Shown here one piece after another: positions 1,950 through 63,147 of a stretch of 64,000 nucleotides of DNA. The notes under the pieces are model-generated. The model searched no databases. It saw only the letters and a program-made list of their open reading frames with translations, and had not been told where the DNA came from. How positions within the stretch are numbered: the stretch's first letter is position 1; each line of letters opens with the position of its first letter. A program made the position numbers and the translations under genes. The stretch lies in the NCBI RefSeq assembly GCF_055900595.2, contig NZ_CM148325.1; one strand, given 5' to 3'.

Positions 1950-4949
1950 TTGATTGGCAAATTTCGTTTGTTACCGAAAAAATTAACCACAAAGAAAAAA
2001 CATGAATCCCAAAATGGACACGTCCACTTTTCTAATCCTAAACGAGCAGCCGACCATTTATTTAATAATTTTGATCTGATACCAGAGTTTCGTATTATTG
2101 GTGACTTCCCGGTTGATAGTCACATTATCTCTGCACTATGGATTAACATGGTCGGGCATAAATTTGATGCCAGCTTAGATAACTGTTGCTATGGCGCGCG
2201 GCTAAAGCGTATTCGTAATGATGAATTATTTAGCAATGAGCAGGATAATCCATTCCATATCAGTGCAGTGGGTTCTTTTAGCCCCTACTTCCAGCCCTAC
2301 CAAAAATGGCGTGGTGATGGCTTAAAAGCTATACGTGACGAGTTGGAAAAAGATCGTGACATTATCGCCGCCTCACTGGATTTAAAAAGTTACTATCATT
2401 TTATTGATCCACTGGCTATAACCTCTGATGATCTCTATAACACACTAAACATAAAACTGACTGAGGATGAAAAAGCGTTTACTGCACAGTTAGCAGTATT
2501 CTTAAAGCACTGGTCTGACGGCGCAGCGGCATTTGGAAAGAAAATAGCGTACAAAACACCTGTTATTAATGGTGGTCTGGTCATTGGATTAACAGCCAGT
2601 CGGATCATTTCAAATATATTGCTACACCATTGGGATAAATTAGTCATTGAAAAACTATCACCAATTCACTACGGTCGTTATGTCGATGATATGTTCCTTG
2701 TAATACGCGATACAGGGAAAATTACTAATAATCACGAATTTATGTTATTGCTGCAAGATAGGCTTGGCAATGATTGCGTTTATTTGAAAAACGAGCAAAA
2801 ACAAATATGGCAAATACAGCAGGGCGAGCATTTCCAGGGTAAGACCACCATCCAGTTACAATCCGATAAGCAAAAACTTTTCGTGCTTCAAGGGAGGGCT
2901 GGAATAGACCTGCTCGACAGTATCGAAAAGGAGATCTACGAGCTTTCTAGTGAACACCGCTTGATGCCTTCACCGGATCAACTGGAACACTCAACCGCAG
3001 CTAAAGTCCTTTCCGCTGCCGGTAGTGTAGGTGAAAATGCCGATACTCTGCGCCGTGCAGATGGATTAACCATTCGTCGTTTGGGCTGGTCACTGCAATT
3101 ACGCTACGTTGAAACACTGGCACGAGATCTGCCTCCAAGTGAATGGAAAGAACAGCGGGAAGAGTTTTATCAGTTTGCCTACAACCATATTCTTAGGGCT
3201 GATAATCTATTTGCACATTTTAGTTATCTGCCAAGGCTGCTTGGCTTTGCTATCAGTATGAATGAATGGCAGCACGCGGAAACAATTGTACTTAAAGCTT
3301 ACGAATCCATCAACCTGTTGGCATCGGTGATTACTTCAGGTAAGGAAGTGAATATAAATGGTTGCAAAACTCGAGCAGTAAATGATCTTTGGCGCTGTAT
3401 AAAAGGCACATTAAGCTGGCTATTTGTTGATGCAGCGACACGATATTACAGTCCTGACAGATTATTTCTTGATAAACGTTCAAAGAAAGAAGAGTGCCTT
3501 GCGGATACATTTTTTAATCATATTTCACAAAGTCTGACGAATCTAAAGGATTTACTGGATCTTCGCTTTGATTCAGCAGATTTTTATTTAAAAGCGCCAT
3601 TGGTAGCTCGAGCTGATTTAGCAAAGGAACCTTATAAACAGATCGTAAAGAGTCAGTCGGCAGAAAAACTTGTTAATCAGCGTGATAGTAAAAAAGAAGT
3701 TAAAATACTGAAATTAATGAGCGACTCATCGCTTATTGATATTGACGTTATTAAGCTATTTTTGAAATCAACCAAGAATACCCGACTGGAAAAAGTGGCT
3801 AAAGGAAATCGTAAGAACGAAAGTTACCTACCTTACATTTTCCCTACACGTCCTTTAACACCCGCTGAAATATCAGAACTGGCCCCCGAATGTGTTGGAT
3901 TACCCTCCACATCCGACAAAAAACCAGATGAGAGACCGTCCACCATTTGGGCAAAATATACTCAAGCATTACGCGGAGTATGGATCAAACCGACGTTGCT
4001 AGCATCGGAGCAGGACTCAGATGAAGCGACAAAAAAAGCTCGGCCTAAGAAATTCATTCATATTGGCACAGACAGGAAACATAAAGTTGTCGTTGCGCTA
4101 ACCAGCATTAAAACAGAGGAGGACGACTGGGCTAAAATGGCCTGCAATAAATCTAACTTGTCCCGTTCAAGGTACCAGCGGATTTCTGAACTGGTTAATG
4201 CAACATTGAAACTATCTCCTAAACCTGATTATGTTTTATTCCCTGAGCTTTCAATCCCGTTACGCTGGGTTAACAGTATTGCTGATCGTTTGAGTTCGGC
4301 GGGTATCAGTCTAATTGCGGGAACAGAATACCGCCACTTAGACGATAATCAACTGAAGAGTGAGGCCGTACTTGTCCTTTCAGATAACAGACTCGGCTAT
4401 CCAGCGAGTGTCAAAATATGGCAACCCAAGCTGGAACCCGCCGTAGGTGAAGATGAGGCATTATTTTCAACTTATGGTAAGTCTTGGGACTCGACACTTA
4501 ATGTTAAACAACGTAAGCCGGTATATATTCATCATGGCGTCAATTTTGGCGTTATGATTTGCTCTGAACTCCAGAATAGTAAAGCGAGGATCCGTTTTCA
4601 GGGCGCACTCGATGCATTAATGGTATTGAGCTGGAATAAAGATCTAGATACGTTTGCATCGTTGATTGAATCAGCAGCGCTGGATATTCATGCCTATACT
4701 ATTTTAGTGAATAACCGAAAATACGGCGATAGTCGCGTACGTTCCCCGGCAAAAGAACCCTTTATGCGTGATATTGCTCGTGTGAAGGGCGGTGATAATG
4801 ACTTTGTGGTCGCTGCAACGCTGGATATCGACTCGTTAAGGGCATTTCAGAGCAGGGCAAAACGCTGGCCTAAAGGCGGCGATAAATTCAAACCGTTACC
4901 TGAAGGATTCCAGTTGGCAAAGAACCGCAAAAAGCTACCGCCAAAATAA
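1950..4949 (+). CDS. Reverse transcriptase fused to C-terminal nitrilase/C-N hydrolase domain (DRT type 1 / UG1-like); 5' end probably truncated by IS1
   Basis: RT motif A ASLDLKSYYHFID and motif C RYVDDMFLV; C-terminal FPELS...GVMICSELQ (Glu and Cys of nitrilase triad); first start is TTG and frame stays open back to IS1 edge. Confidence 0.7.
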   Translation: MIGKFRLLPKKLTTKKKHESQNGHVHFSNPKRAADHLFNNFDLIPEFRIIGDFPVDSHIISALWINMVGHKFDASLDNCCYGARLKRIRNDELFSNEQDNPFHISAVGSFSPYFQPYQKWRGDGLKAIRDELEKDRDIIAASLDLKSYYHFIDPLAITSDDLYNTLNIKLTEDEKAFTAQLAVFLKHWSDGAAAFGKKIAYKTPVINGGLVIGLTASRIISNILLHHWDKLVIEKLSPIHYGRYVDDMFLVIRDTGKITNNHEFMLLLQDRLGNDCVYLKNEQKQIWQIQQGEHFQGKTTIQLQSDKQKLFVLQGRAGIDLLDSIEKEIYELSSEHRLMPSPDQLEHSTAAKVLSAAGSVGENADTLRRADGLTIRRLGWSLQLRYVETLARDLPPSEWKEQREEFYQFAYNHILRADNLFAHFSYLPRLLGFAISMNEWQHAETIVLKAYESINLLASVITSGKEVNINGCKTRAVNDLWRCIKGTLSWLFVDAATRYYSPDRLFLDKRSKKEECLADTFFNHISQSLTNLKDLLDLRFDSADFYLKAPLVARADLAKEPYKQIVKSQSAEKLVNQRDSKKEVKILKLMSDSSLIDIDVIKLFLKSTKNTRLEKVAKGNRKNESYLPYIFPTRPLTPAEISELAPECVGLPSTSDKKPDERPSTIWAKYTQALRGVWIKPTLLASEQDSDEATKKARPKKFIHIGTDRKHKVVVALTSIKTEEDDWAKMACNKSNLSRSRYQRISELVNATLKLSPKPDYVLFPELSIPLRWVNSIADRLSSAGISLIAGTEYRHLDDNQLKSEAVLVLSDNRLGYPASVKIWQPKLEPAVGEDEALFSTYGKSWDSTLNVKQRKPVYIHHGVNFGVMICSELQNSKARIRFQGALDALMVLSWNKDLDTFASLIESAALDIHAYTILVNNRKYGDSRVRSPAKEPFMRDIARVKGGDNDFVVAATLDIDSLRAFQSRAKRWPKGGDKFKPLPEGFQLAKNRKKLPPK

Positions 4950-25466: not shown

Positions 25467-26681
25467 TCATGCGTGTTTTTCAAACACCATATGCACCACA
25501 TTTCCGCCATGCTCGAGAGAATCCATATAGTCGGCATACCATTGAAGCATCTCCCGCCTTCCATCCAGATATTGCGCATGGTTGTATGTGCCACGAATTG
25601 AGTTCTTATCAACGTGAGCGAGCTGCGTTTCTATCCACGCGGTGTTATAGCCCTGCTCATGCAAAATCGTACTCATAGTGTGCCGGAACCCATGACCAGT
25701 TACACGTCCAGCGTAGCCAATGCGCTTAAACACTTGGTTTATGCTGGCCTCGCTCATTGTTTTCCTTGGATCATTGCGCCCGGGAAACATAAGAGGGTAA
25801 TTGCCTGTTATTTCTCTAATCTTCCCAATAAGCGAAAGAGCCTGCTCAGACAATGGCACAATATGAGGCCGCCGCATTTTCATACGTGAAGCGGGTATCT
25901 CCCAGATAGCCTTGTTGAAATCAATTTCATCCCATAATGCGCCACGTAGTTCGCCAGTCCGCAAGCCGGTGATAATCAGTAGACGAGCCGCCATAACAAC
26001 CAATGCGCTTCCTGAGTAACTGGACAATGCCTTGAAAAAATCAGGTAATTCTTTGGCTGTAAGGAAAGGGTAATGATTAGATTCATGGCCTTGCATCGCG
26101 CTAGTAAGGTCTGGTGCAGGGTTATACTCTGCGCGACCAGTGACTATTGCATAGCGGAAAACTTCCCCGCACCGTTGCCTCACTTTTTTGGCTTTTTCTG
26201 TAGCACCGCGCCCCTCGATGCGACGCAGCACATTCAGAAGTTCAAGTGGTTTGATTTCGGCGATGGGTTTTTTGCCAATGTAAGGGAACACATCTTTGTT
26301 GAAGGCTTCGAGGATGTCTGAAGCATAACCAGCAGACCATTTTTTTAATTTGCTGCTGTGCCACTCAAGGGCAATATCTTTGAAGGTGTTGTTTAACTGC
26401 GTTTCCCGGGCAATCTTTTCCTCTCGTTTCGCTTCCATCGGATCGATACCACCAGCGATACCTCTTTTCGCATCTTCACGTTTTGCCCGAGCATCGGCTA
26501 GAGTAACCTCAGGATAAACACCTAGTGCCAATAGCTTCTCTTTACCAGCTACACGATATTTAAGTCGCCAGTATTTACCTCCATTAGGTTTTACCAAGAG
26601 ATACAAACCGCCACCATCGGCCAGCTTGTAAGCCTTCTCTTTTGGCTTGGCTGTGTCTATTTGACGGGCATTGAGTTTCAC
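25467..26681 (-). CDS. P4-type tyrosine integrase
   Basis: 404 aa; MKLNARQIDTAKPKEK... N-terminus, C-terminal HGFRHT...H..Y catalytic region; adjacent to tRNA. Confidence 0.9.
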   Translation of the reverse strand: MKLNARQIDTAKPKEKAYKLADGGGLYLLVKPNGGKYWRLKYRVAGKEKLLALGVYPEVTLADARAKREDAKRGIAGGIDPMEAKREEKIARETQLNNTFKDIALEWHSSKLKKWSAGYASDILEAFNKDVFPYIGKKPIAEIKPLELLNVLRRIEGRGATEKAKKVRQRCGEVFRYAIVTGRAEYNPAPDLTSAMQGHESNHYPFLTAKELPDFFKALSSYSGSALVVMAARLLIITGLRTGELRGALWDEIDFNKAIWEIPASRMKMRRPHIVPLSEQALSLIGKIREITGNYPLMFPGRNDPRKTMSEASINQVFKRIGYAGRVTGHGFRHTMSTILHEQGYNTAWIETQLAHVDKNSIRGTYNHAQYLDGRREMLQWYADYMDSLEHGGNVVHMVFEKHA

Positions 26682-44680: not shown

Positions 44681-44971
44681 AAACCGGCTGAATGAAGGTG
44701 AGAATTTTAAAAGACCGGAGGAGTAAACGGGATTATTAATTGCTTATTTGCATATTACTATTGAGGTTTCATAATCTTAGGAAATAAATGATACATGCGC
44801 TTTTCGGACTAATGAAAACTGCCCTTGTGCTAAATTTGTAAACCCTGCGCCGACAGGCTTGCGTAAAACTCTTTTGGTGATAATGTGAGCCTTCCAAATC
44901 CAGACTATTCCGATTTGGGATCCATTTTGCCGTCCTGGCGTGTGTAACCGTTTTATCAAGGAATAAGCAGT

Positions 44972-52487: not shown

Positions 52488-52653
52488 GATGGATATCCCC
52501 GGATTCTCGCCTGTAAGTGCAGGCAGAGATCCGGGAGAATACCCGCATACATTCAGCGCAAACATTCCTGCCAGACCATCCGCGCGCGGTTCCTCTGTCA
52601 GTCACAGTCCGCATCGTAGATAAACTGATGTTCCGTAGCTGATGTAATTAAAC

Positions 52654-53268
52654 TCATATATCCGTAAGTGATTTAAAATCAGCAACACGGGCAAATTCCT
52701 TTTTCGGTAGTACCAAAGACTCTAGTCGTGCTGATAGCAGTTCAACCATAAACTCTGCCCACCCTAAGTCAAATTCATCACAAAGAGGTCCACGACTTTC
52801 ATTTATAACTATTTTCCAATTACAATTTTTTTCTAATTTCCAGAATAAAACCTCTCCACTATCAGTTATACCAAACGGGAGAACACCATCTTCCGATGGA
52901 AAAAAATTGTATGGGAATTTTTCGCCATGAAGTTTGACCTCAGCAAGAGCCGAATTTATTTCCTTTGCTTGCTCGATTAAATTAATATATGGATTATCAA
53001 CAAACGGGCTAAAGATCCAAAGGAACCCATTTATTCGTCCTATCCCATATTCATCAATAAAGGATTTATAATCTTCTGGCAACAAAATACCTAGCCTAGA
53101 CTCTGCTTTCCGCCAGTCATTGACGCCATTATAATCGTCAATAAGGTTTTTATAATCATTAGACAATTGAATACCGAGTTCAGATTCTAACCGTCCCCAA
53201 TAAGTAGTTATTTTCTCATTAATAACTGCTGGTGGCGGAATTATTTTCTTTATCATATCAATAGACAT
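52654..53268 (-). CDS. SMI1/KNR4 (SUKH-1)-like orphan immunity protein
   Basis: Two LxxDYKxxIDxYxG-type repeats (LSNDYKNLIDDYNG, LPEDYKSFIDEYGIG); downstream of Rhs gene. Confidence 0.6.
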   Translation of the reverse strand: MSIDMIKKIIPPPAVINEKITTYWGRLESELGIQLSNDYKNLIDDYNGVNDWRKAESRLGILLPEDYKSFIDEYGIGRINGFLWIFSPFVDNPYINLIEQAKEINSALAEVKLHGEKFPYNFFPSEDGVLPFGITDSGEVLFWKLEKNCNWKIVINESRGPLCDEFDLGWAEFMVELLSARLESLVLPKKEFARVADFKSLTDI

Positions 53269-53313: not shown

Positions 53314-53511
53314 TCAATTTTCATAATCCAGAATTGGCTCATCTAATGCTTCTGAATAACGAAGAAGATTCTCTCGCAAATCTTCAAGGGATTCACCTCG
53401 CGGAGACACTGGTTTTTCACTATATCCACAAACCTTACCTGCTTCATTATAATATACCTCATAGATAGCAAGCTCCCCTTTAAATTGCATAACTCTATAA
53501 TTCCAAGTCAT
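53314..53511 (-). CDS. Small protein immediately downstream of Rhs C-terminal toxin domain, candidate cognate immunity
   Basis: 65-aa ORF starting 8 nt after the Rhs stop. Confidence 0.45.
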   Translation of the reverse strand: MTWNYRVMQFKGELAIYEVYYNEAGKVCGYSEKPVSPRGESLEDLRENLLRYSEALDEPILDYEN

Positions 53512-53519
53512 ATCTCCTC

Positions 53520-54383
53520 CTATTTTTTATGATAATCAACAATATCATGAATAATTATTTCATTTTCTGTTTCAGAATATAAAACTCTATCTCCCCCTCT
53601 TCCTTTACCACTTCCTGGTAAGTCGGCTGCTGATTTCCCTTTTAAATCACCATGTAAAGAATGCTGGTTTTTTCCTGACTCACCACGAGAAAGCATAATT
53701 TTAATAGCATCATAGGCTTCAGCTTGTTTTCCTTTGAGCGCATCCCCCTTCTTCGCCGCCAAATCCTCCTCTATGATGGTTTTCATTTGGGTAGGACATT
53801 TTTCACCTGCCAGCCCCCACGGGTCGCACCAACCCACCGGATTATGCACATAAGACTGCGTATCCAGCCCGCCGCTCAGTTTCAGCGGATCCTGGCTTAA
53901 ATACTGCCCCGTCCCGGCGTCGTAGTAGCGGTGTAAATTATACCACAGCCCGCTCTCCTCATCCTGCCACTGGCCCATGAAGCCCGCATCGCAGCTTTCA
54001 CGCTCACTGTCCGGCGAGTCGTTTGCAGCCAGCCCCCACAGGCTGCGGTGTTTCGTCCACACCTTCCGCCCGTTCGCGCAGTACATCTCCTGCGGCGCGC
54101 CGTCCGGGCCGGTCACTACCGGGTAAAAATAACTTCTGTCATCATTCGCCGCCCGGCTTTCCTTCGCCAGCAGTTCAAATCTGCCCCCGGTAGTGCCACT
54201 GCTCCCGTAGCGCCGGGCTGCCGTCTGCATAGCGTTTCTCACTTGTGGAAAGCGCCATCCCAAGCCACTGGTAGCGTACTTCGCTGATGGCGTGCGGGCT
54301 TCGTTTCCACGCTGCCCGGATAACGCAGCGTTTTGCCGTTCGTCTGCCAAAGGCGTCGTAGCTGTACTGCCACACTTCACCAT
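53520..54383 (-). CDS. Rhs C-terminal segment: end of core (PxxxxDPxGL) plus about 100-aa variable toxin domain; separated from core ORF by frameshift
   Basis: GLWYNLHRYYDAGTGQYLSQDPLKLSGGLDTQSYVHNPVGWCDPWGL then divergent C-terminus ending RVLYSETENEIIIHDIVDYHKK. Confidence 0.75.
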   Translation of the reverse strand: MVKCGSTATTPLADERQNAALSGQRGNEARTPSAKYATSGLGWRFPQVRNAMQTAARRYGSSGTTGGRFELLAKESRAANDDRSYFYPVVTGPDGAPQEMYCANGRKVWTKHRSLWGLAANDSPDSERESCDAGFMGQWQDEESGLWYNLHRYYDAGTGQYLSQDPLKLSGGLDTQSYVHNPVGWCDPWGLAGEKCPTQMKTIIEEDLAAKKGDALKGKQAEAYDAIKIMLSRGESGKNQHSLHGDLKGKSAADLPGSGKGRGGDRVLYSETENEIIIHDIVDYHKK

Positions 54384-57300
54384 CTGGTGTCTTTATCTCG
54401 CGCAGACGGTCGAAGTCATCCCAGCGGTAGCGCCACTCCTGCGGGCGAAAGCCGAGTTTTTGGTCGGTGCGCTTTGTCACCCTGCCGCAGGCGTCGTATC
54501 CGTAGCGGCTGTCACCGGCCTGGTTCACACATTCATTATTGTACTGGTGCTGCGACAGAATACCGTTTATCCGGCTTTCCGCTATCTGCTCATTGACCGT
54601 ATAGCGGTAGCGCTCTTCCTGTGCCGGACCACTGGCGTCCAGCCGCAGTACGCTGGTTATCTGGTCGCGGGCATCGTACTGGTAGCGCGTTTCCCGCTCC
54701 GTACGCGTTTTCGACCACACTTCATGCCCGGTCAGGCGGCCCGATTTATCCCACGCGTAACGGTGTTCGCCCAGCGGTCGCCACGATGCCACGCTCTGGT
54801 GGCTGCCTGCCAGCCGCTCTGCGCCCTGTTTTTGCCATGCCGTACGTCCGCAGGTGTCGTATCCCTGCTCCTGCATATAGACCGCATGGTTCAGCGGCGT
54901 CTGCGCCAGCCAGCTTTCCTCATCCTCCGGGCGGTAACGCCGATTTTTTTCAAGGCCCGCGGGGGAATGACTGAAGTCCATCCGGTGACCGTTGCTGCGG
55001 TAGCCCGTCAGAATGCCCGAAGCGTCGTATTCTCTCTGTGTTTCCCCGTCCGGCGTTGTGGTGCCAGTCAGCCTTCCGGCTTCGTCGTAACGGTACTCCG
55101 TGCGCTGGCCGTCCTGCTCTTCCGCCACCAGACGATGGCGTTCGTCCCACTCCAGTTTTACCTCACTGGTGAGCGTATAGCCTGCTTCACTGCCGTCGCT
55201 GCGCTCATACACCTGCGCACTCACCATCCGGTCATGGCGGTCGTACTGATAGCTGAGTTTCTGATGCTCGCCGCTGATGGTCGCCACCCGGCCATATTCA
55301 TCCCTCGCATAGCGCCATACGCTGCCGTCCGGGCGGTGTTTTTCTGCCAGCCGGCCCTGTTCATCACGGATATAGACGGTTCTGCGTCCCGACCAGTCCT
55401 CCTCCCCGGCCATCTGGCCCGCCGCATCGTAGTACAGCCGCCACTGCTGGTTGCCGCTGCGCGTAAGCTGCGTGAGCCTTGCGGCACCATCGTAGTCGCA
55501 AAGTATCCGCTGCCCGCCCGCGTCCTCCACTTCCCGCAGCAGGTCAAATGCCCCGTGGCGGTAGCGCGTGGTCTGGCCCATGGCCCCGGTGTGGAGAGTG
55601 ATTTTGCCTTCACCATCATAGCGGAAGGTTTCAGCGCCACCGTCGGCCCGGATTACTGCGCTCAGTTTCTCATGCGGGTTATCGGCACCGGGGCGGTACT
55701 GCCAGTTCACGCTGCGCCCTTCAGCATCCACCAGCCCCGTCAGCCGCAGCCAGCGGTCTTCCGTGTAATGGGTTGTGCGGCCTTCACCATCGGTATGGGA
55801 AAGCAGGCCACCGTGAGCGCTGTAGCTCCACTGTTCGTGGCTGCCGTCCGGGTACTGTATCTCCTTGAGCAGACCGTCTTCGGTATGACGGTACTGCCAG
55901 TTCTGCCCGTTCACCTCCCGGCGGATAAGATTCCCTTCGGCGTTATAATGGTACGCCGCCGTGGTGCGGTGGTCCTGGTATGCCGTAACCTGACCAAATT
56001 CATCCCACTGCCATTCACGTTTACGCCCGTTCTCGTCCGTTTCGCTCAGGATACGCCCGGCATAATCGCGTTTTATCTGAGTAATGCGCCCACCCGGCTG
56101 GCGAATACACAGCGGCTGGTCGTATTCGTTACGCTCCCATTCAGTGATACGCCCCAGCGGGTCACGCTGTTTTTTCAGCAGCCAGGACTCATCGAACCAC
56201 AGCGTGGTGGTGGCTCCGGTGGCATCGGTGTAATCGGTTCTGCGCTCCTCCGGGAAGTAGCGGAAGGTGTCGTTATACAGGCCTTCCTGTGTGCCTGTGG
56301 CAGTCACCCGGCCTTCATCGTCATAGCGCAGGTGGAAGTGCGTCGGGCCGTTGTCGCGCCAGGAACTCAGCCAGCCCTGTTCGGTATAGGTATAATGCAA
56401 CGCGCCATTAAAGCGGGTCTGCACATCGCTCAGTCGCTGTTCATCGCCGTGACTGATATAGTCATAGCGCACCAGCTCGCTGCCGTCTGACTCGTCGATC
56501 ACACGGAATATCTGCCCCTGCGGGCCACACATCACCCGCAGATTCAGGCCGCTGCTGTGGGTTACGTTTGTCAGTTGGCCGATGACGTTATAGGTGAAGC
56601 GAATTTCGTTGCGGTTGCGGTCTTTTATTGCCGTTAGCCGCAGGCGGCGTGCGCCGGGGGAGATGGGCGTAAAGATATAACCCAATTGTGAGTATTCGTC
56701 GAAGATAATAGCCCGCTCACGGTTTCCCAGGAGGCGATAGTGCGGGACAAGCAGGTTACGGCTACTGTATGGTGCCTGCTCCGTGGAGTAGGCCAGACAT
56801 AGCCCCTCAGCATCAAAGTAGGTGACGTTTTTCCCGTTGCAATCGAACTCCAGAAACTGCGACCAGTTACACAACCAGCGACTGCCCAGCAAACCACTAA
56901 CCGGATGTCGGCCTGTATAAGCACGTTTCAGCGTCAGCGGTAAAATATGCGGATAGTTGAAATCAGTTCGGTAATCCAGATATTCACCCGTTCCGGTATC
57001 CACCGGATCGCTGAACCCCTGACTGATACGCTCATTTGCGGCTCTGTTTAACTGCTTTGCTCCCCATAGAGCTGTTAACACTTCCAGACTTGATACAACA
57101 GATTGCTCCAGCACCGTCATATCGGCATTAATCGGCCCATACTGTCCGGTCGTCTTATCAGCCGTAATGGTTTTACATCCTTCCTGAATAACTGCCGAGC
57201 AGGTAATTTTATGGCCCTTACGCGCCAGCGGCAGGCTGTTGACGGAAATAATTTTGCTCCCTTCCACTATCTGTGGAGGAGGACTGCCCGGATCCTTACT

Positions 57301-57942
57301 ACATTCAACCGGATCAGTGACGCGAGCTACCGCTTTTCCTTCAAAAAAAACATTAGGAGAGCCTTCTACAATCTGTCCGGTTTCAGATGCCCAGCGGGAA
57401 CCAATTACCATCGCTGCGCCACCGACAAATCCACCAGCTAATCCCCCGGCCCCGGCAGCAACGGTGGCAGCCAGCACACCCAATGCCGCGCCCCCTGTAG
57501 CGACAACCAGAGCTCCCACTGCAATCCCTACAATAAGTCCACCGATTAACCCACCAATAGCACCCAGAAAGGAATTGTTATGAACAATGTGATGACCCAC
57601 ACACGCAGGTATATCTGTTGGGCCGGAAACTGCGTGATCTTTACCCCAGGTATCCATGAACCAGTCACCTGCTTTGGTGCCCAGCCATCCCCCCAGCATC
57701 CCGCCAACCAGTCCGGCAATCAAAGGGCCTCCAAATCCTGCAACAGCTTTGGCTATTCCGGCTGCACAGGTGTTTGCTGCTGCGGCTGCCAGTCCTACCT
57801 TTGCCGTTGCTCCCACCATACTGACAGCCATTATTCCAGTACTGGCAATATGTCCTGTGGTAGCAATACTCTCCACTGTTTCGGCATTACTGTCCCGTTG
57901 ATCCAGCTCCGCTAACTTCTCCTGCGCGCTTTTTTCCGTCAT
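54175..57942 (-). CDS. PAAR-Rhs protein, N-terminal and YD-repeat core (frameshifted relative to C-terminal segment)
   Basis: Gly-rich hydrophobic N-terminus, PAAR-like GSPNVFFEGKAVARVTDPVEC, many YD repeats (RYDDEGR, RYDGEGK, YRYDEAGRL). Confidence 0.85.
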   Translation of the reverse strand: MTEKSAQEKLAELDQRDSNAETVESIATTGHIASTGIMAVSMVGATAKVGLAAAAANTCAAGIAKAVAGFGGPLIAGLVGGMLGGWLGTKAGDWFMDTWGKDHAVSGPTDIPACVGHHIVHNNSFLGAIGGLIGGLIVGIAVGALVVATGGAALGVLAATVAAGAGGLAGGFVGGAAMVIGSRWASETGQIVEGSPNVFFEGKAVARVTDPVECSKDPGSPPPQIVEGSKIISVNSLPLARKGHKITCSAVIQEGCKTITADKTTGQYGPINADMTVLEQSVVSSLEVLTALWGAKQLNRAANERISQGFSDPVDTGTGEYLDYRTDFNYPHILPLTLKRAYTGRHPVSGLLGSRWLCNWSQFLEFDCNGKNVTYFDAEGLCLAYSTEQAPYSSRNLLVPHYRLLGNRERAIIFDEYSQLGYIFTPISPGARRLRLTAIKDRNRNEIRFTYNVIGQLTNVTHSSGLNLRVMCGPQGQIFRVIDESDGSELVRYDYISHGDEQRLSDVQTRFNGALHYTYTEQGWLSSWRDNGPTHFHLRYDDEGRVTATGTQEGLYNDTFRYFPEERRTDYTDATGATTTLWFDESWLLKKQRDPLGRITEWERNEYDQPLCIRQPGGRITQIKRDYAGRILSETDENGRKREWQWDEFGQVTAYQDHRTTAAYHYNAEGNLIRREVNGQNWQYRHTEDGLLKEIQYPDGSHEQWSYSAHGGLLSHTDGEGRTTHYTEDRWLRLTGLVDAEGRSVNWQYRPGADNPHEKLSAVIRADGGAETFRYDGEGKITLHTGAMGQTTRYRHGAFDLLREVEDAGGQRILCDYDGAARLTQLTRSGNQQWRLYYDAAGQMAGEEDWSGRRTVYIRDEQGRLAEKHRPDGSVWRYARDEYGRVATISGEHQKLSYQYDRHDRMVSAQVYERSDGSEAGYTLTSEVKLEWDERHRLVAEEQDGQRTEYRYDEAGRLTGTTTPDGETQREYDASGILTGYRSNGHRMDFSHSPAGLEKNRRYRPEDEESWLAQTPLNHAVYMQEQGYDTCGRTAWQKQGAERLAGSHQSVASWRPLGEHRYAWDKSGRLTGHEVWSKTRTERETRYQYDARDQITSVLRLDASGPAQEERYRYTVNEQIAESRINGILSQHQYNNECVNQAGDSRYGYDACGRVTKRTDQKLGFRPQEWRYRWDDFDRLREIKTPDGEVWQYSYDAFGRRTAKRCVIRAAWKRSPHAISEVRYQWLGMALSTSEKRYADGSPALREQWHYRGQI

Positions 57943-57972: not shown

Positions 57973-58404
57973 TTATTTATCCTGTGGCATTCCAAAACAA
58001 AAATTCAATAATGCTCCCCGCATCGCTTTACGATCCTCCTCTGCCAGCGCCTGCGTTGAGGAATAGGTCAGCGTCAGTACTTGTCGCTCGTTCAGGATTA
58101 CCAGCAGCAACTGCTGTATCATCACCCCCTTGTTATCCCAGCTAAATTCCCAGTATTCCGCCGGGCGCTCCTGCACATGACAGCGTTCTTCTACGGTGAA
58201 CACCATTTTCGACAGTTCGGTACGGAATTTCTTTTTCTGCACCGCCAGATAGTCATCAAACTGCGCGCCTTCCGGCAATATTTCACGAGTGACAACTACA
58301 TTTGCTCCGGCAACCGCACTTAGTACTGGCGTCAGAATATTCATACTGCTGTCCTGCCAGTTTCCCGGCAGAGTGAAATGCCCTTCATTAATGAGATATT
58401 GCAT
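57973..58404 (-). CDS. DUF1795-like (Eag-family) T6SS effector chaperone
   Basis: 143-aa ORF in the canonical position between vgrG and the PAAR-Rhs gene. Confidence 0.6.
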   Translation of the reverse strand: MQYLINEGHFTLPGNWQDSSMNILTPVLSAVAGANVVVTREILPEGAQFDDYLAVQKKKFRTELSKMVFTVEERCHVQERPAEYWEFSWDNKGVMIQQLLLVILNERQVLTLTYSSTQALAEEDRKAMRGALLNFCFGMPQDK

Positions 58405-58436: not shown

Positions 58437-60656
58437 TTACTGTGGATTTAGCGCCAGATGGGTGGGTCCATCGAGGGTGATAGTGCCGTCTGAATTCATA
58501 ACAAGAGTGCTTTTTCCGACAGTCAACTTTATCTGCGTTGCTGCGGTAAGGTGTATCGCCCCGGTTTTTGACGTGATGGTGATATTCCCTTCTACCGTCT
58601 CCGTGCAGGTTCCCGTTTCTACCGTCACCTCGCGTTTACCCGTTTTCACCGTCAGAGACTGGTCGCCTTCCGTTACGGTAATATTCCGGTTGCCTTTGAT
58701 GGTTTCGGTATGCTTACCATCAACAAATTCCGTGCGGTCGATTTTTACCGTGGATGTTTCGTTATGAATGATGGTTTTCGTCCGATCTGCCTTTACCGTG
58801 TGTGTTTCGTTATTTTTCACGACGGTATTCAGATCTTTCTCCGCAAGAAACCTCACTTCTTCCGCCCCCGTTTTATCGTCAAAGCGCAGCATGTTTCCGT
58901 TGGTCGCCCCCCCCTGTAACGAGTGGCTGAATATCCCGCTCTGCGACGCCATGCCCGGTAGCCCCCACGGCGGCATGGTGTCCTGGTTGTAGGTGCGCCC
59001 CACGATAATCGGTAGATCCGGGTCGCCATTTTTGAAATCCACCAGCACTTCCTGGCCGATGCGCGGGATCTGGATCATGCCGAATCCTTTACCCGCCCAC
59101 GGATAGCTGACGCGGATCCAGCAGGAGCTGTTTTCGTCATTATTACCGTAACGATCCCAGCCAAACTGCACCTTCACCCGGCCATATTTATCCGTCCAGA
59201 TTTCCTGCCCTACCGGGCCGGTGACGATGGCGCTCTGCGGGCCTTTGGTGTGGGGTTTGCTCAGGGTTCGTTGTGGGCGGTAAACTTCGCGGGTGGGATG
59301 CAGTTCAAACGTGGTGACATAGGTAAAATGCTGATCCTGGCCGCTGTGCTGCGCGTTGTCCCGTAAAAACAGCGTGGTTTGTACCAACAGATATTCCTGA
59401 TTAATTTCTGCCGTCGGGTGATTCATCAACGTAAAGGTGTACCCGGTCATGAGGGTACGGATATGACCGGCCCCATGTGCCCGGCTGCCGGGGCTGCGCT
59501 GCGCTTCCATACGAATGCGCGTCAGCATCTCACCTTCGCCCGTAGTGAAGTAATCACCAGGCCATTCATAATGCTCATATTCAGCATGACCGGTATTACG
59601 CGGACTAGCCACGGTACTTTTAAGCAGCGAACGAGGCTTCATAAAATCAAAATCGTCCATCACCCACTTTCCAGTACGCAGTCTCTCACTGGCCGTAATG
59701 GTGTGGATAAATTCTTTGTCCAGTTTCAGCCCTTCCTGGTGCCACTCCACCAGTGGCGAGTCAGGGCACGCTTTATGACCATTGATGGCATCCGTCAGCA
59801 CCAGCGTATGGCAGTTCTCGCTGTGCTCAAACCACCAGTAGATTCCCCACTCCTGCATCAGGCGCTGGATGAAATCGAAGTCGGTTTCACCATACTGCAC
59901 CTGCCAGACGCGGGGTGGATAATTTTCCACCAGCCGCTTTTCCACCGGAAAGGAATATTCATCCAGTACTTCATCGAGAATATCCACCACGGTTTTGTTC
60001 TGGAACGCTTTGTAGTCGCTGGTATGGGTCAGCAGCTTCAGCCATGGCTCAATGCGTAATTCATACGTTACCGAACGGCCCTCATGGCCGACCACCCTCG
60101 CCGCCGTCACCAGCCCGCTGATATACCGTTTTCCGCCACCGTCCAGTTCGATACTGACGCACAGGTCTTTGCCTACCATGGGCTGAAGCGGCAGGTTGGC
60201 CGCGGGGGAAACGTATCCCAGGTTCAGGGCGTCCGGCGTTTTAAGCTGTACTGTGTAGGAAAACAGATTCCCAAGCCCTTCCGAACCATTCATGCCTGCG
60301 AACAGCAGCATCTGCGGCGGCACCGAACCACCACTTACTGTGACGTTATGCGCCCCCGGACCACCGGCTGCAAGCGACGCCGCCGCATCCTGAACTGCAC
60401 CAGCCATATCCGATATCCCTGCTGCTGCGGCGGCGGCTTGCGCAGCGGCTACTGCGGCTTTAACCAGACCTGACGGTTCCGGCAACGCACCAAACAGGTC
60501 CGCCACTGCCTGTTCTGCCATCTGCTCGGCGGCATCAGCTACATCGGTTGCGGCTGAACCTGTGCTCATACTGCCACTTTCGCCAGCTATTGGTGGTGTG
60601 GTGATGACGGGTCCACCGTTTCCAACTGGTTTATTACCCGTAGATACAAAACTCAT
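58437..60656 (-). CDS. vgrG: T6SS spike protein VgrG with about 110-aa Ala/Gly-rich N-terminal extension in frame
   Basis: gp27/gp5-like regions: [22 protein letters not shown]..., [46 protein letters not shown]. Confidence 0.9.
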
Positions 60657-60680
60657 GATATTTGCTCCTTTAATACCGGA

Positions 60681-61067
60681 TTAAAATCTAGCCCCTGGTG
60701 GCCAAAAAATATAAGTAATCACTCTCCATTGCCCGTCTTTATAATGAAACCAACATGTCAGATTCAAATCCCCCTGCAAATTCCAGAACATTTCCTTAAT
60801 AGGAACATTTTGAAATTCAGGATCTGTTATGCGATAAGTTTGATTCAAGCCGATATAATACTCACCAACAAATTTATATCGTGGCCTCACGAACTCATGA
60901 GCAGGCGGCCCATATTTCTTCATAAAAAAGATGTCATTACTTCCATCATGTATATCATTTTCTTCATAATATTTGGTGGATTGAGCAACTGCAGAAGGCG
61001 AGAAAACATTCACTGTAGTTATGTAAGTTATTGAAAGGAAAATCACTATAATACAGAAAAATTTCAT
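60681..61067 (-). CDS. Secreted protein (signal peptide), candidate immunity for metallopeptidase effector
   Basis: 128 aa MKFFCIIVIFLSITYITTVNVFSPSAVA...; conserved C-terminal half shared with 62776-63147. Confidence 0.55.
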   Translation of the reverse strand: MKFFCIIVIFLSITYITTVNVFSPSAVAQSTKYYEENDIHDGSNDIFFMKKYGPPAHEFVRPRYKFVGEYYIGLNQTYRITDPEFQNVPIKEMFWNLQGDLNLTCWFHYKDGQWRVITYIFWPPGARF

Positions 61068-61765
61068 TTGGTTACATTCAATAAAGTAAATTTAGTTTCA
61101 GGCATTATGACATTCAACGTTATAGTTGCGTTTTTAAGGTATCGTTCCCGAAGCTCCATTCCCACATTCATCAACCCACTAATATCTCCAACATACGGAG
61201 ACGAAGAATCATAATCATCATCTAAGTAACCAAGTACATGTCCGGCTTCATGAGGTATATTTACTTGCAACGTATTATTACAGTTAATACATTTCGCTAC
61301 TTTTTCCAGGTCCGCTGAATCAACATGAACCGTACTGTTTTTAAAATCAACATATGTTCTTAAATCAGCACCAGGCAAAACCTTTGTTGCAATAACCAAC
61401 CAGTCTTCATTCTGAGATGCAGAAATTATTCTTACATCAAAAGGCAAAGCTTTACCCTGAAATTTTTTAGCGAACTCAGATTCACCGGAAACAGAATAAG
61501 TTATTTTCCCATTCCATGCCTGCTGAACAGATAAATATATCGCTCGCATAAAAATAGCTTTTTCCCATATAATCCAGTCATCTGTAACGGTATTATCTTT
61601 ATACCACTCATACTTCCATCTTATCACAGCCGTAATCGAACCAGTATTTTGATTTAATAAATACGTCCTCCTACCATCCTTATGTATAATGATATCGCCA
61701 TCAATATTTGTTTTTTCATAGTATTCGGCCAGCAAACTATTCTCATCATATTTAAGCTTGGTCAT
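61064..61765 (-). CDS. Putative zinc metallopeptidase (HExxHxxGxxD), candidate T6SS cargo effector
   Basis: 233 aa with HEAGHVLGYLD motif; overlaps downstream gene by 4 nt; directly upstream of vgrG. Confidence 0.6.
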   Translation of the reverse strand: MTKLKYDENSLLAEYYEKTNIDGDIIIHKDGRRTYLLNQNTGSITAVIRWKYEWYKDNTVTDDWIIWEKAIFMRAIYLSVQQAWNGKITYSVSGESEFAKKFQGKALPFDVRIISASQNEDWLVIATKVLPGADLRTYVDFKNSTVHVDSADLEKVAKCINCNNTLQVNIPHEAGHVLGYLDDDYDSSSPYVGDISGLMNVGMELRERYLKNATITLNVIMPETKFTLLNVTK

Positions 61766-61831
61766 TTTACTCTCATTAAATACTAATTGTTTGTATCGAA
61801 AATATTATCTGGAAAAATATTATTTTATATA

Positions 61832-61977
61832 TTACGAGTATTGCCCCTTCAGCCGCAGCGCATCCACATACCGTCCTTCACTGCAGGGCAAGATTACGAA
61901 AGCCCGCCCCGCAAGGACTGACGCGAGGTAGTTTCTGTCCATGGCTGCTTTTATCATCTTACGTCTTAACCCTGCCT
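61832..61977 (-). pseudogene. H-repeat-associated (ISAs1-family) transposase 3' remnant fused in frame to truncated vgrG
   Basis: [24 protein letters not shown] matches the H-rpt protein C-terminus. Confidence 0.6.
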
Positions 61978-62419
61978 TGGTTTCGCCGTACTGCACCTGC
62001 CAGGCGCGGGGTGGATAATTTTCCACCAGCCGCTTTTCCACCGGAAAGGAATATTCATCCAGTACTTCATCGAGAATATCCACCACGGTTTTGTTCTGGA
62101 ACGCTTTGTAGTCGCTGGTATGGGTCAGCAGCTTCAGCCATGGCTCAATGCGTAATTCATACGTTACCGAACGGCCCTCATGGCCGACCACCCTCGCCGC
62201 CGTCACCAGCCCGCTGATATACCGTTTTCCGCCACCGTCCAGTTCGATACTGACGCACAGGTCTTTGCCTACCATGGGCTGAAGCGGCAGGTTGGCGGCG
62301 AGGGAGACATATCCGAGGTTCAGGGTGTCCGGGGTTTTAAGCTGTACTATGTAGGAAAACAGGTTTCCAAGCCCTTCCGAACCATTCATGCCTGCAAACA
62401 AAAGCAGCTGCGGCGGCAC
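61978..62419 (-). pseudogene. Truncated second copy of vgrG (first about 147 aa only)
   Basis: Near-identical to the N-terminal gp27-like region of the vgrG at 58437-60656 up to QVQYGET. Confidence 0.8.
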
Positions 62420-62430
62420 CGCACTACCAC

Positions 62431-62751
62431 TTACTGTGACGTTATGCCCCCCGGACCACCGGCAGCAAGCGACGCCGCCGCATCCTGAACTGCACCAGCC
62501 ATATCCGAGATCCCTGCTGCGGCGGCTGCGGCTTGCGCAGCAGCTACTGCGGCTTTAACCAGACCTGACGGTTCCGGCAACGCACCAAACAGGTCCGCCG
62601 CGGCCTGTTCTGCCATCTGCTCGGCTGCATCAGCTACATCGGTTGCGGCTGAACTGGCGCTTACAGCACTACTTTCTCCGGCTATCGGTGGCGTGGAGAT
62701 AGCTGGCCCACCGTTACTGCCAGATTTATTACCCGTAGATACAAAACTCAT
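62431..62751 (-). CDS. Ala/Gly-rich 106-aa ORF equivalent to the N-terminal extension of the intact vgrG, here separate because of a 1-nt indel
   Basis: [27 protein letters not shown]... about 85 percent identical to vgrG residues 1-105. Confidence 0.45.
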
Positions 62752-62775
62752 GATATTTATTCCTTTAATATCGGA

Positions 62776-63147
62776 TTAAAATTTTGCGCCCGGCGGCCAG
62801 AAAAAATAAGAAATAACCCGCCACTGTCCATCTTTATAATGAAAAAAACATGTCAGATTTAAATCCCCCCGCAAATGCCAAAACATTTCTTTGATGGGGA
62901 TATTTCTGAATTCAGGATTCGTTGAGCGATAGACATTTTCAATCTCTATATAATACTCACCGACTAATTTATAACGAGGCTTTATAAATTCATACGCTGG
63001 CTGACCATAGTTATTTAATAGAACATTCTCTTCAACTCCATTATACACACCACTCGCATTCAGATAAGCATACCCAGGAATATCAGACATGCTATTTTTC
63101 GCCCCACCCACTATCAAAAAAATAATCACAGCGTATATTAGTTTCAT
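62776..63147 (-). CDS. Secreted protein (signal peptide), paralog of candidate immunity at 60681-61067
   Basis: Conserved C-terminal half KPRYKLVGEYYI...PIKEMFWHLRGDLNLTCFFHYKDGQWRVISYFFWPPGAKF. Confidence 0.5.
   Translation of the reverse strand: MKLIYAVIIFLIVGGAKNSMSDIPGYAYLNASGVYNGVEENVLLNNYGQPAYEFIKPRYKLVGEYYIEIENVYRSTNPEFRNIPIKEMFWHLRGDLNLTCFFHYKDGQWRVISYFFWPPGAKF

Follow-up and report, generated by a model that had tools for sequence, protein, structure and literature searches.

A PAAR-Rhs effector gene split by an inherited one-base insertion: a probable young pseudogene in a sub-lineage of Escherichia coli

Introduction

The closest described counterparts of the locus analysed here are RhsA of Pseudomonas protegens (PMC8765631) and Rhs1 of Photorhabdus laumondii (PMC8636562). 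In both systems a vgrG gene is followed by the gene for a DcrB/DUF1795 chaperone, by the one for a large protein carrying PAAR, DUF6531 and YD-repeat regions, and by an immunity gene. The large protein ends with a C-terminal core, which contains two DPxxL motifs 17 residues apart and is followed by a small variable toxin. In P. protegens RhsA one end of the cocoon formed by the protein is closed by a C-terminal domain, the autoprotease, and killing needs cleavage (PMC8765631); in Photorhabdus Rhs1 the two motifs are of the DPLGL type, and the aspartate of the second one is catalytic (PMC8636562).

The window, i.e. the whole stretch of 64,000 nucleotides of DNA that was analysed, contains a locus with the same gene order, the same type of C-terminal core with its paired motifs and a small variable toxin at the end. 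It differs from the RhsA and Rhs1 systems in that the core and the toxin are found in the +1 frame, after a stop at residue 1255, and in that the toxin has no Pfam family. Currently, the two pieces are separate NCBI entries, named "PAAR domain-containing protein" and "RHS repeat-associated core domain-containing protein". The evidence presented below indicates that both belong to one gene, interrupted by a real mutation, which is highly probably an ordinary pseudogene fixed in one E. coli sub-lineage: a recent slippage insertion that left the effector toxin-dead while its immunity has been kept.

Organization of the rhs locus

The features that define the effector operon and the break are the following:

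58437 to 60656, minus strand: intact VgrG spike gene, 739 aa (PF05954, E 2e-100), holding a G8 run at 58907-58914
57973 to 58404, minus strand: gene for a DcrB/DUF1795-type (Eag) chaperone, upstream of rhs (PF08786, E 2.2e-27)
54175 to 57942, minus strand: truncated PAAR-Rhs ORF, 1255 aa (Pfam domains; found as the exact protein P0001 on 87 contigs)
54184 to 54188, minus strand: G5 homopolymer, site of the one-base insertion, with G4 as the ancestral state (alignment with intact orthologues and run lengths in 14 related loci)
54175 to 54177, minus strand: premature UGA stop, two codons past the insertion (CGG GGG CAG AUU UGA), the product ending in WHYRGQI (sequence and translation)

Pfam analysis of the 1255-aa ORF revealed a PAAR domain at residues 186-252 (PF05488, E 4.5e-16), a DUF6531 plug at residues 312-381 (PF20148, E 2.6e-15) and YD/Rhs repeats (PF05593, E 8.2e-65), while the translation shows a hydrophobic N-terminal region rich in glycine and alanine. 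The C-terminal seal/autoprotease and the toxin are absent from this product. In related loci TssM and TagF are found upstream, past the edge of the window; downstream of the rhs/immunity region there are an ISAs1 remnant, yafV, ivy and fadE. In E. coli a T6SS island is usual at this chromosomal position, beside yafV-ivy-fadE, and the rhs locus belongs to it.

The components expected of a T6SS PAAR-Rhs effector are therefore recognizable: the PAAR domain, the YD/Rhs shell with its DUF6531 plug, and the adjoining genes for VgrG and for the Eag/DUF1795 chaperone. The variable C-terminal toxin, followed by its cognate immunity gene, is also encoded, the toxin being out of frame in the window; the Rhs-associated core is present too, but in the +1 frame, beyond the premature stop.

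The frameshift site

On the minus strand, the 1255-aa ORF and a 287-aa ORF at 53520 to 54383 share positions 54175-54383, that is 209 nt, in different frames, in agreement with the overlap of about 200 nt from which a sequence-only reading of this DNA had proposed a split gene. BLASTP comparison with an intact E. coli orthologue of 1473 aa (P0014, WP_001542648.1) revealed that the 1255-aa frame matches residues 1-1253 with 97% identity and without gaps, while the frame of the 287-aa ORF matches residues 1255-1473, also with 97% identity (E 4e-152). Since the two frames align contiguously to the same protein, the switch is located at codon 1253/1254. This position corresponds to the C5 run of the plus strand at 54184-54188, read as G5 on the coding strand, near which the shift had already been placed. 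Indeed, in DNA alignments with intact E. coli orthologues from complete genomes, G4 versus the G5 of the window is the sole indel in 350 nt.

When one G is removed from the window, a single ORF of 1473 aa is obtained, as predicted by the earlier expectation of a continuous frame of about 1470 aa, and its product is the same at every residue as an intact allele, P0043. Both P0043 and the more distant P0014 carry G4 at the site where the window has G5. Judged from these alignments, the overlap is a homology-backed frame break and not a chance overlap of ORFs.

As to how the additional base was gained, templating by a quasi-palindrome was considered and rejected, since the 10-bp inverted repeat that flanks the site would template a T and not a G.

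The C-terminal core and the toxin domain

Two segments are found beyond the stop, in the other frame:

53811 to 54183, minus strand: out-of-frame remainder of the Rhs core, residues 1254-1377 of the repaired protein, with two DPxxL motifs (TIGR03696 Rhs_assc_core, E 7.5e-19)
53523 to 53810, minus strand: out-of-frame C-terminal toxin domain of 96 aa, residues 1378-1473 of the repaired protein, with a predicted RelE/YafQ/YoeB/HigB-type fold (AlphaFold2 and Foldseek)

The two motifs of the core are DPLKL and DPWGL, the latter encoded at 53811-53825; they are 17 residues apart.

The toxin domain, searched as a single sequence, gave no match in Pfam, NCBIfam or PDB, and a word-indexed homologue search returned as relatives two E. 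fergusonii fragments only. An exhaustive HMMER search, instead, found it in 68 representative clusters, nearly always at the C-terminus, in proteins ranging from 45 to 1907 aa. In the alignment of 33 members five residues are invariant, namely H52, D65, R73, R77 and H96. The profile built on the family has a weak match to HigB in PDB (E 0.03), in which H-x-L-K-G-D … R … DYH is aligned, and some members of the family match ParE_toxin (3e-4) or YafQ_toxin (3e-5). The AlphaFold2 model has a pLDDT of 84.6, and its best Foldseek match is YafQ (9lew_B; E 3.4e-5, TM 0.72/0.78, rmsd 1.9 A); the top 15 PDB matches with E <= 1e-3 are all YafQ, RelE, YoeB or H. pylori HP0894, HigB being found just under the cut-off. 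The model thus corresponds to the RelE-type fold, in which a helical hairpin packs against an antiparallel sheet.

Thus, the lost toxin is, according to the structural model, a RelE/YafQ-fold domain, and most likely it would act as a ribosome-dependent mRNase. It shares with the type II toxins of the RelE/ParE superfamily the predicted fold and, with HigB, the C-terminal DYH(K) motif of the profile alignment. However, the window's own sequence lies under the thresholds of these families, and the domain is carried as C-terminal cargo of an Rhs protein together with a 65-aa immunity protein, not with a DNA-binding antitoxin.

Immunity genes

Two small genes are located after the toxin-coding segment:

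53314 to 53511, minus strand: intact 65-aa ORF, cognate immunity gene of the RelE-like toxin (homologue beside a distant Rhs with the same toxin domain)
52654 to 53268, minus strand: intact 204-aa SMI1/KNR4 (SUKH) gene, another gene of immunity type, for which the window holds no matching toxin (PF14568, E 1.7e-18; PF09346, E 5.4e-12)

The assignment of the first one comes from an unrelated contig (locus L043), which encodes a distant Rhs protein of 1793 aa (P0069) with the same toxin domain: the 64-aa ORF directly after it is 46% identical to the 65-aa ORF of the window (E 1e-20). The presence of this homologue next to a distant Rhs with the same toxin identifies the 65-aa ORF as the cognate immunity gene. 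The exact 65-aa protein occurs on 404 contigs, and both the 65-aa and the SUKH genes are intact in all the related loci. Immunity would be expected to persist after loss of the toxin as long as sister strains fire it.

An inherited allele

The sequence-only reading had also considered that the extra base could be a homopolymer error of sequencing or assembly, in which case the true sequence would be G4 and the gene intact. The position of the shift inside a homopolymer and the existence of sister genomes with G4 are compatible with this idea; however, the exact truncated protein, P0001, was found on 87 contigs and in 184 index blocks of a collection of 15 billion proteins searched by exact match. 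These contigs come from independent projects and assemblers (NCBI drafts with contigs of ~52 kb, ENA, and Logan assemblies of sequencing runs), which argues against an error of sequencing. Moreover, G5 was read in every G5 locus that was fetched, from six different assemblies, and the G5 genomes share lineage SNPs and a sub-structure of their own; one locus shows no difference from the window over 9.8 kb, and L003 and L018 are identical to it or nearly so. Runs of 5 nt are not known to cause systematic errors in short-read data. An error is thus exceedingly improbable, and this part of the earlier reading has to be abandoned.

The intact allele is found in close relatives. The length of the run in 14 related loci is 5 in L018-L021 and 4 in L008-L017; the latter are the loci of the exact repaired protein P0043, which about 21 contigs from the same E. 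coli lineage encode. These contigs share their genomic context with those encoding P0001, as well as the break points of the draft contigs of ~52 kb. Across the gene, 4.4 kb long, one G is the sole difference between the window and the G4 genome L008, and the lack of any other difference indicates that the insertion is very recent.

The assignment of the window to a cryptic Escherichia clade, to which the best full-length matches among RefSeq complete genomes (~94-96.5%) could point, was rejected, since near-identical genomes exist (99.8-99.99%). The latter ranked low because they do not carry the 20.7-kb insertion of the window or have lost the T6SS island.

Lineage pattern and run length

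The distribution of the two alleles was analyzed by a SNP matrix covering positions 43000-64000 of the window, with seven G5 loci, ten G4 loci and two outgroups. All the G5 genomes, and with them four G4 genomes (L009 and L014-L016), have the derived G at 58907, while the ancestral C is found in the remaining G4 genomes and in the outgroups. Within the G5 group, positions 52622, 51341 and 63675 mark the subgroup of the window and position 53924 marks another one; the latter change, which converts Y to H in a conserved RYYD motif of the out-of-frame part, has arisen inside the G5 clade. Nesting of this kind is to be expected if the insertion arose once and then spread clonally.

One conflict was observed: the G4 genome L009 has a T at 44776, as do L019 and L021, which are G5, so that an insertion that took place once and never reverted requires one homoplasy. 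The conflict is explained equally parsimoniously, with the same number of steps, by homoplasy of the SNP, by a second insertion, or by reversion/recombination. The possibility that the G4 of L009 comes from an error-ridden long-read assembly was discarded: just 2 of 105 homopolymers of at least 5 nt differ from the window in this genome. No informative SNP was found in an extra 4 kb upstream of the window, and PepD and FadE, tried as lineage markers by exact look-up, proved too conserved (969 and 32,395 blocks, respectively).

Together with a pseudogene, the earlier reading had proposed a phase-variable gene; in that case the G-run would be a contingency tract toggling the toxin by slipped-strand mispairing. 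The finding of G4 and G5 on alleles that are otherwise the same at the protein level is in line with this proposal, and so is the conflict of L009, for which a second insertion, a reversion or recombination event and SNP homoplasy are equally good explanations. Homopolymer contingency tracts are typically of 7 nt or more. Here the tract is of 4-5 nt, and only two lengths are found, rather than a scatter of several lengths among close relatives; exact look-up in the collection of 15 billion proteins gave no G3, G6 or G7 product and no G4 revertant with the G5-clade marker Y1339H. Furthermore, apart from L009, the G5 genomes are nested in one sub-lineage, and no G5 was found among the orthologues listed from RefSeq complete genomes. 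The contingency loci of Neisseria, Haemophilus and Campylobacter are alike in having a coding poly-G tract whose length sets the frame, but differ from this site, where a run of 4-5 nt has two states and an essentially clonal distribution. With at most two events in roughly 130 genomes, this is in all likelihood not a contingency locus, although a low-frequency second G4/G5 event may have occurred; accordingly, phase variation is very unlikely and the proposal is not supported.

Expression of the out-of-frame part

A further question posed by an inherited G5 is whether the C-terminal part can still be translated. By chance, the insertion has generated a site that resembles the programmed +1 frameshift of prfB, which encodes RF2. 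The latter depends on a GGGGG acting as SD-like element at a distance of six nt from the stop, on the slippery CUUU, on the UGA codon and on the C after it (PMC12421855, PMC10798248). The mutant coding strand reads CGG GGG CAG AUU UGA A (site sequence CGGGGGCAGAUUUGAA, in the context …CACUACCGGGGGCAGAUUUGAACUG…), so that a leaky slip from AUU to UUU at the shifty stop, made by a small fraction of the ribosomes, would give a near-native, full-length Rhs protein, with …WHYRGQIELLAKE… replacing …WHYRGRFELLAKE… in the predicted product. The junction peptide of this predicted +1 product is …EQWHYRGQIELLAK.

The window site shares with the prfB one, AGGGGG-UAU-CUU-UGA-C, the GGGGG and its spacing, three nt from the P-site codon and six nt before the stop, the in-frame UGA, and the run of three U across the P-site codon and the stop; in both cases a +1 slip restores the productive frame. 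Here the slip at AUU-U would enter the toxin frame exactly, with only two residues altered. FSscan requires at least 4 anti-SD pairs within the six nt that precede the E site (PMC2790909); CGGGGG has this pairing, and the A-site score of "TGA A" is high, 1.8 (PMC2790909). However, the P-site codon is AUU and not CUU, which leaves tRNA-Ile on UUU with a U:U mismatch at the first position; P-site mispairing can lower shifting at the RF2 site up to 1000-fold, in the summary of Curran 1993 given in PMC2377451. The base after the stop is an A instead of the C of a weak stop, and of 100 shuffled versions of the window 13 contain at least one GGGGG-N4-TTTGA arrangement, so its presence is statistically unremarkable. 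In addition, while the SD-like spacing corresponds to that of prfB, CUU-U and UGA-C are not found and evolutionary conservation is missing: the site is a derived mutation of one clade, the ancestral allele and all the other orthologues being in frame. Rescue of the effector by +1 frameshifting is therefore considered unlikely. If it were true, the "pseudogene" would be a strongly down-tuned effector, cleavable and toxin-loaded, whose output is set by RF2 availability. The mutant site is also a test case, of natural origin, for asking which portion of the prfB signal suffices for +1 frameshifting.

A different possibility is a two-piece effector, in which a polypeptide made independently from the C-terminal ORF would complete the cocoon in trans. 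TcB and TcC of the Tc toxins act in this way, and the BC components build an Rhs cocoon from two polypeptides (PMC8765631). Gene callers indeed give C-terminal ORFs of 180, 188 or 236 aa; however, near the break the sequence shows no in-frame start that has a ribosome-binding site at the proper distance, and the AGGAG ahead of the Met in QEMYCANG abuts the ATG. Moreover, the gene is otherwise a single one, split by a derived insertion of one base within a repeat, and one sub-lineage already has the Y-to-H change in the conserved RYYD motif. A two-piece effector is, on these grounds, extremely improbable. As for transcriptional slippage, the runs known to make RNA polymerase slip are A/T runs of about 9 nt, a length that G5 is far from reaching.

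Discussion

The explanation that accounts best for these data, and that we hold with high confidence, is a recent frameshift pseudogene, the first of the possibilities put forward in the sequence-only reading. It agrees with an inherited G5, with an intact G4 allele in sister genomes and with a C-terminal core and a toxin that are out of frame. The change from G4 to G5 in rhs would have occurred most simply by replication slippage; translation would then end at the stop two codons past the insertion, producing a PAAR-Rhs protein of 1255 aa. In this protein the Rhs shell would lack its final ~125 residues, comprising the seal and the putative aspartyl autoprotease with the two DPxxL motifs, and the toxin of 96 aa would be missing as well. 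The absence of both the seal/autoprotease and the toxin would make the effector toxin-dead. By analogy with the described systems, the Rhs shell of the truncated protein is probably incomplete, and we infer that it would be able neither to encapsulate nor to release a toxin. The out-of-frame part is otherwise undamaged; this fits a recent origin, and alone is no proof of lost function.

At this locus the rhs gene is commonly found broken. An independent deletion from C5 to C4 in rhs, about 260 nt upstream of the site of the window, is present in A35-type genomes; other split rhs ORFs are found at the same locus in unrelated E. coli (L033, L034 and L038), and the orthologue is annotated as split in 5 of the 60 complete genomes listed. 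The explanation is an ordinary one: in an effector of a known class, a frameshift has lately produced a pseudogene that is fixed in the lineage.

The identification of the two annotated CDS as one gene broken by a real mutation has value for annotation and for strain typing, since the G5 allele is a marker of one sub-lineage within an E. coli clone, the sisters of which keep the intact effector. The lost toxin represents a small family without a Pfam entry, formed by polymorphic-toxin domains with a predicted RelE/YafQ fold and a conserved 65-aa immunity partner. As for the bacterium, the G5 sub-lineage has probably lost one interbacterial weapon while retaining the immunity to it, a common pattern of effector decay.

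Homopolymer tracts and frameshifts

The T6SS neighbourhood of the window contains, besides the G5 run that splits the PAAR-Rhs effector gene (rhs), a longer homopolymer in the sequence of vgrG:

58907-58914, minus strand: G8 homopolymer CAGGGGGGGGCGACC in vgrG (58437..60656)

Comparison of related loci revealed that the ancestral allele of this run is G7 followed by C; the run was lengthened by a synonymous C-to-G change at 58907, which is borne by a sub-lineage that includes all the genomes with the frameshifted, G5 rhs. Shorter runs that break vgrG are found in two related assemblies, both with intact (G4) rhs: in L009 the run is G6 and VgrG is split into products of 591 and 151 aa, while in L014 it is G7 and the gene is also broken. 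Slippage or assembly error is more plausible at this vgrG G8 tract than at the rhs G5.

The rhs frameshift site and the premature stop are enclosed by an inverted repeat:

54186-54195 and 54114-54123, minus strand: perfect 10-bp inverted repeat, CACTACCGGG / CCCGGTAGTG

Folding of the 126-nt RNA at this repeat gave -54.4 kcal/mol, with z = -3.1. The repeat was also considered as template of the extra rhs G and was rejected, since it would not template that G.

A frameshift independent of the one in the window is present in the same gene of other E. coli: L002 (NZ_CP028740.1) has a one-base deletion in the C5 run CCGCCCCCAGG, at nt 3498 of the rhs orthologue, and the same deletion is found in H105, H109, H134 and H136. 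The orthologue is thereby split into two CDS, one for a 'PAAR domain-containing protein' and the other an 'RHS repeat-associated core'. In L021 (GCA_027274655.1), a G5 genome, a 2-nt deletion (AA) distinguishes tssM from that of its relatives (locus positions ~626-627) and the TssM gene call is absent; either the T6SS has decayed further in this strain, or this is an assembly error.

Associated genes and variable segments

52654..53268: SUKH (SMI1/KNR4) gene of immunity type; the cognate 65-aa immunity gene lies upstream of it
61832..62419: N-terminal VgrG fragment, 195 aa (PF05954, E 4e-38), upstream of intact vgrG
6145-26840: ~20.7-kb segment adjoining proA, missing from near-identical genomes
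25467..26681: tyrosine recombinase ORF, inside the ~20.7-kb segment
44776: intergenic G/T polymorphism, upstream of a yafL-like NlpC/P60 gene (43922..44680)

No toxin matching the SUKH gene was found in the 64-kb window. Its protein contains an internal duplication (…DYKNLIDDYNG… / …DYKSFIDEYGIG…) and, by exact look-up, is encoded by 216 contigs, outnumbering those with the truncated Rhs; close variants are present in E. fergusonii.

Over about 1 kb (window 59883-60885 and 61979-62980), the two vgrG copies, intact and fragmentary, are 90% identical. The interval between them (~60886-61978), which includes a 233-aa ORF, is absent in L020, L005 and L006, an absence that looks like recombination between the repeats.

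A prophage or an integrative element is the probable identity of the segment adjoining proA. In L023, L026, L030 and L031, otherwise 99.8-99.99% identical, window 6144 is joined directly to 26841, and AP025754.1 carries a different insert at this position.

Finally, position 44776 is the only site that does not fit an rhs insertion arising just once: T is carried by L019 and L021, both G5, and by L009, a G4 genome. The substitution converts TAAGAT to TAATAT, closer to a -10 promoter element, and may represent a recurrent adaptive promoter change.
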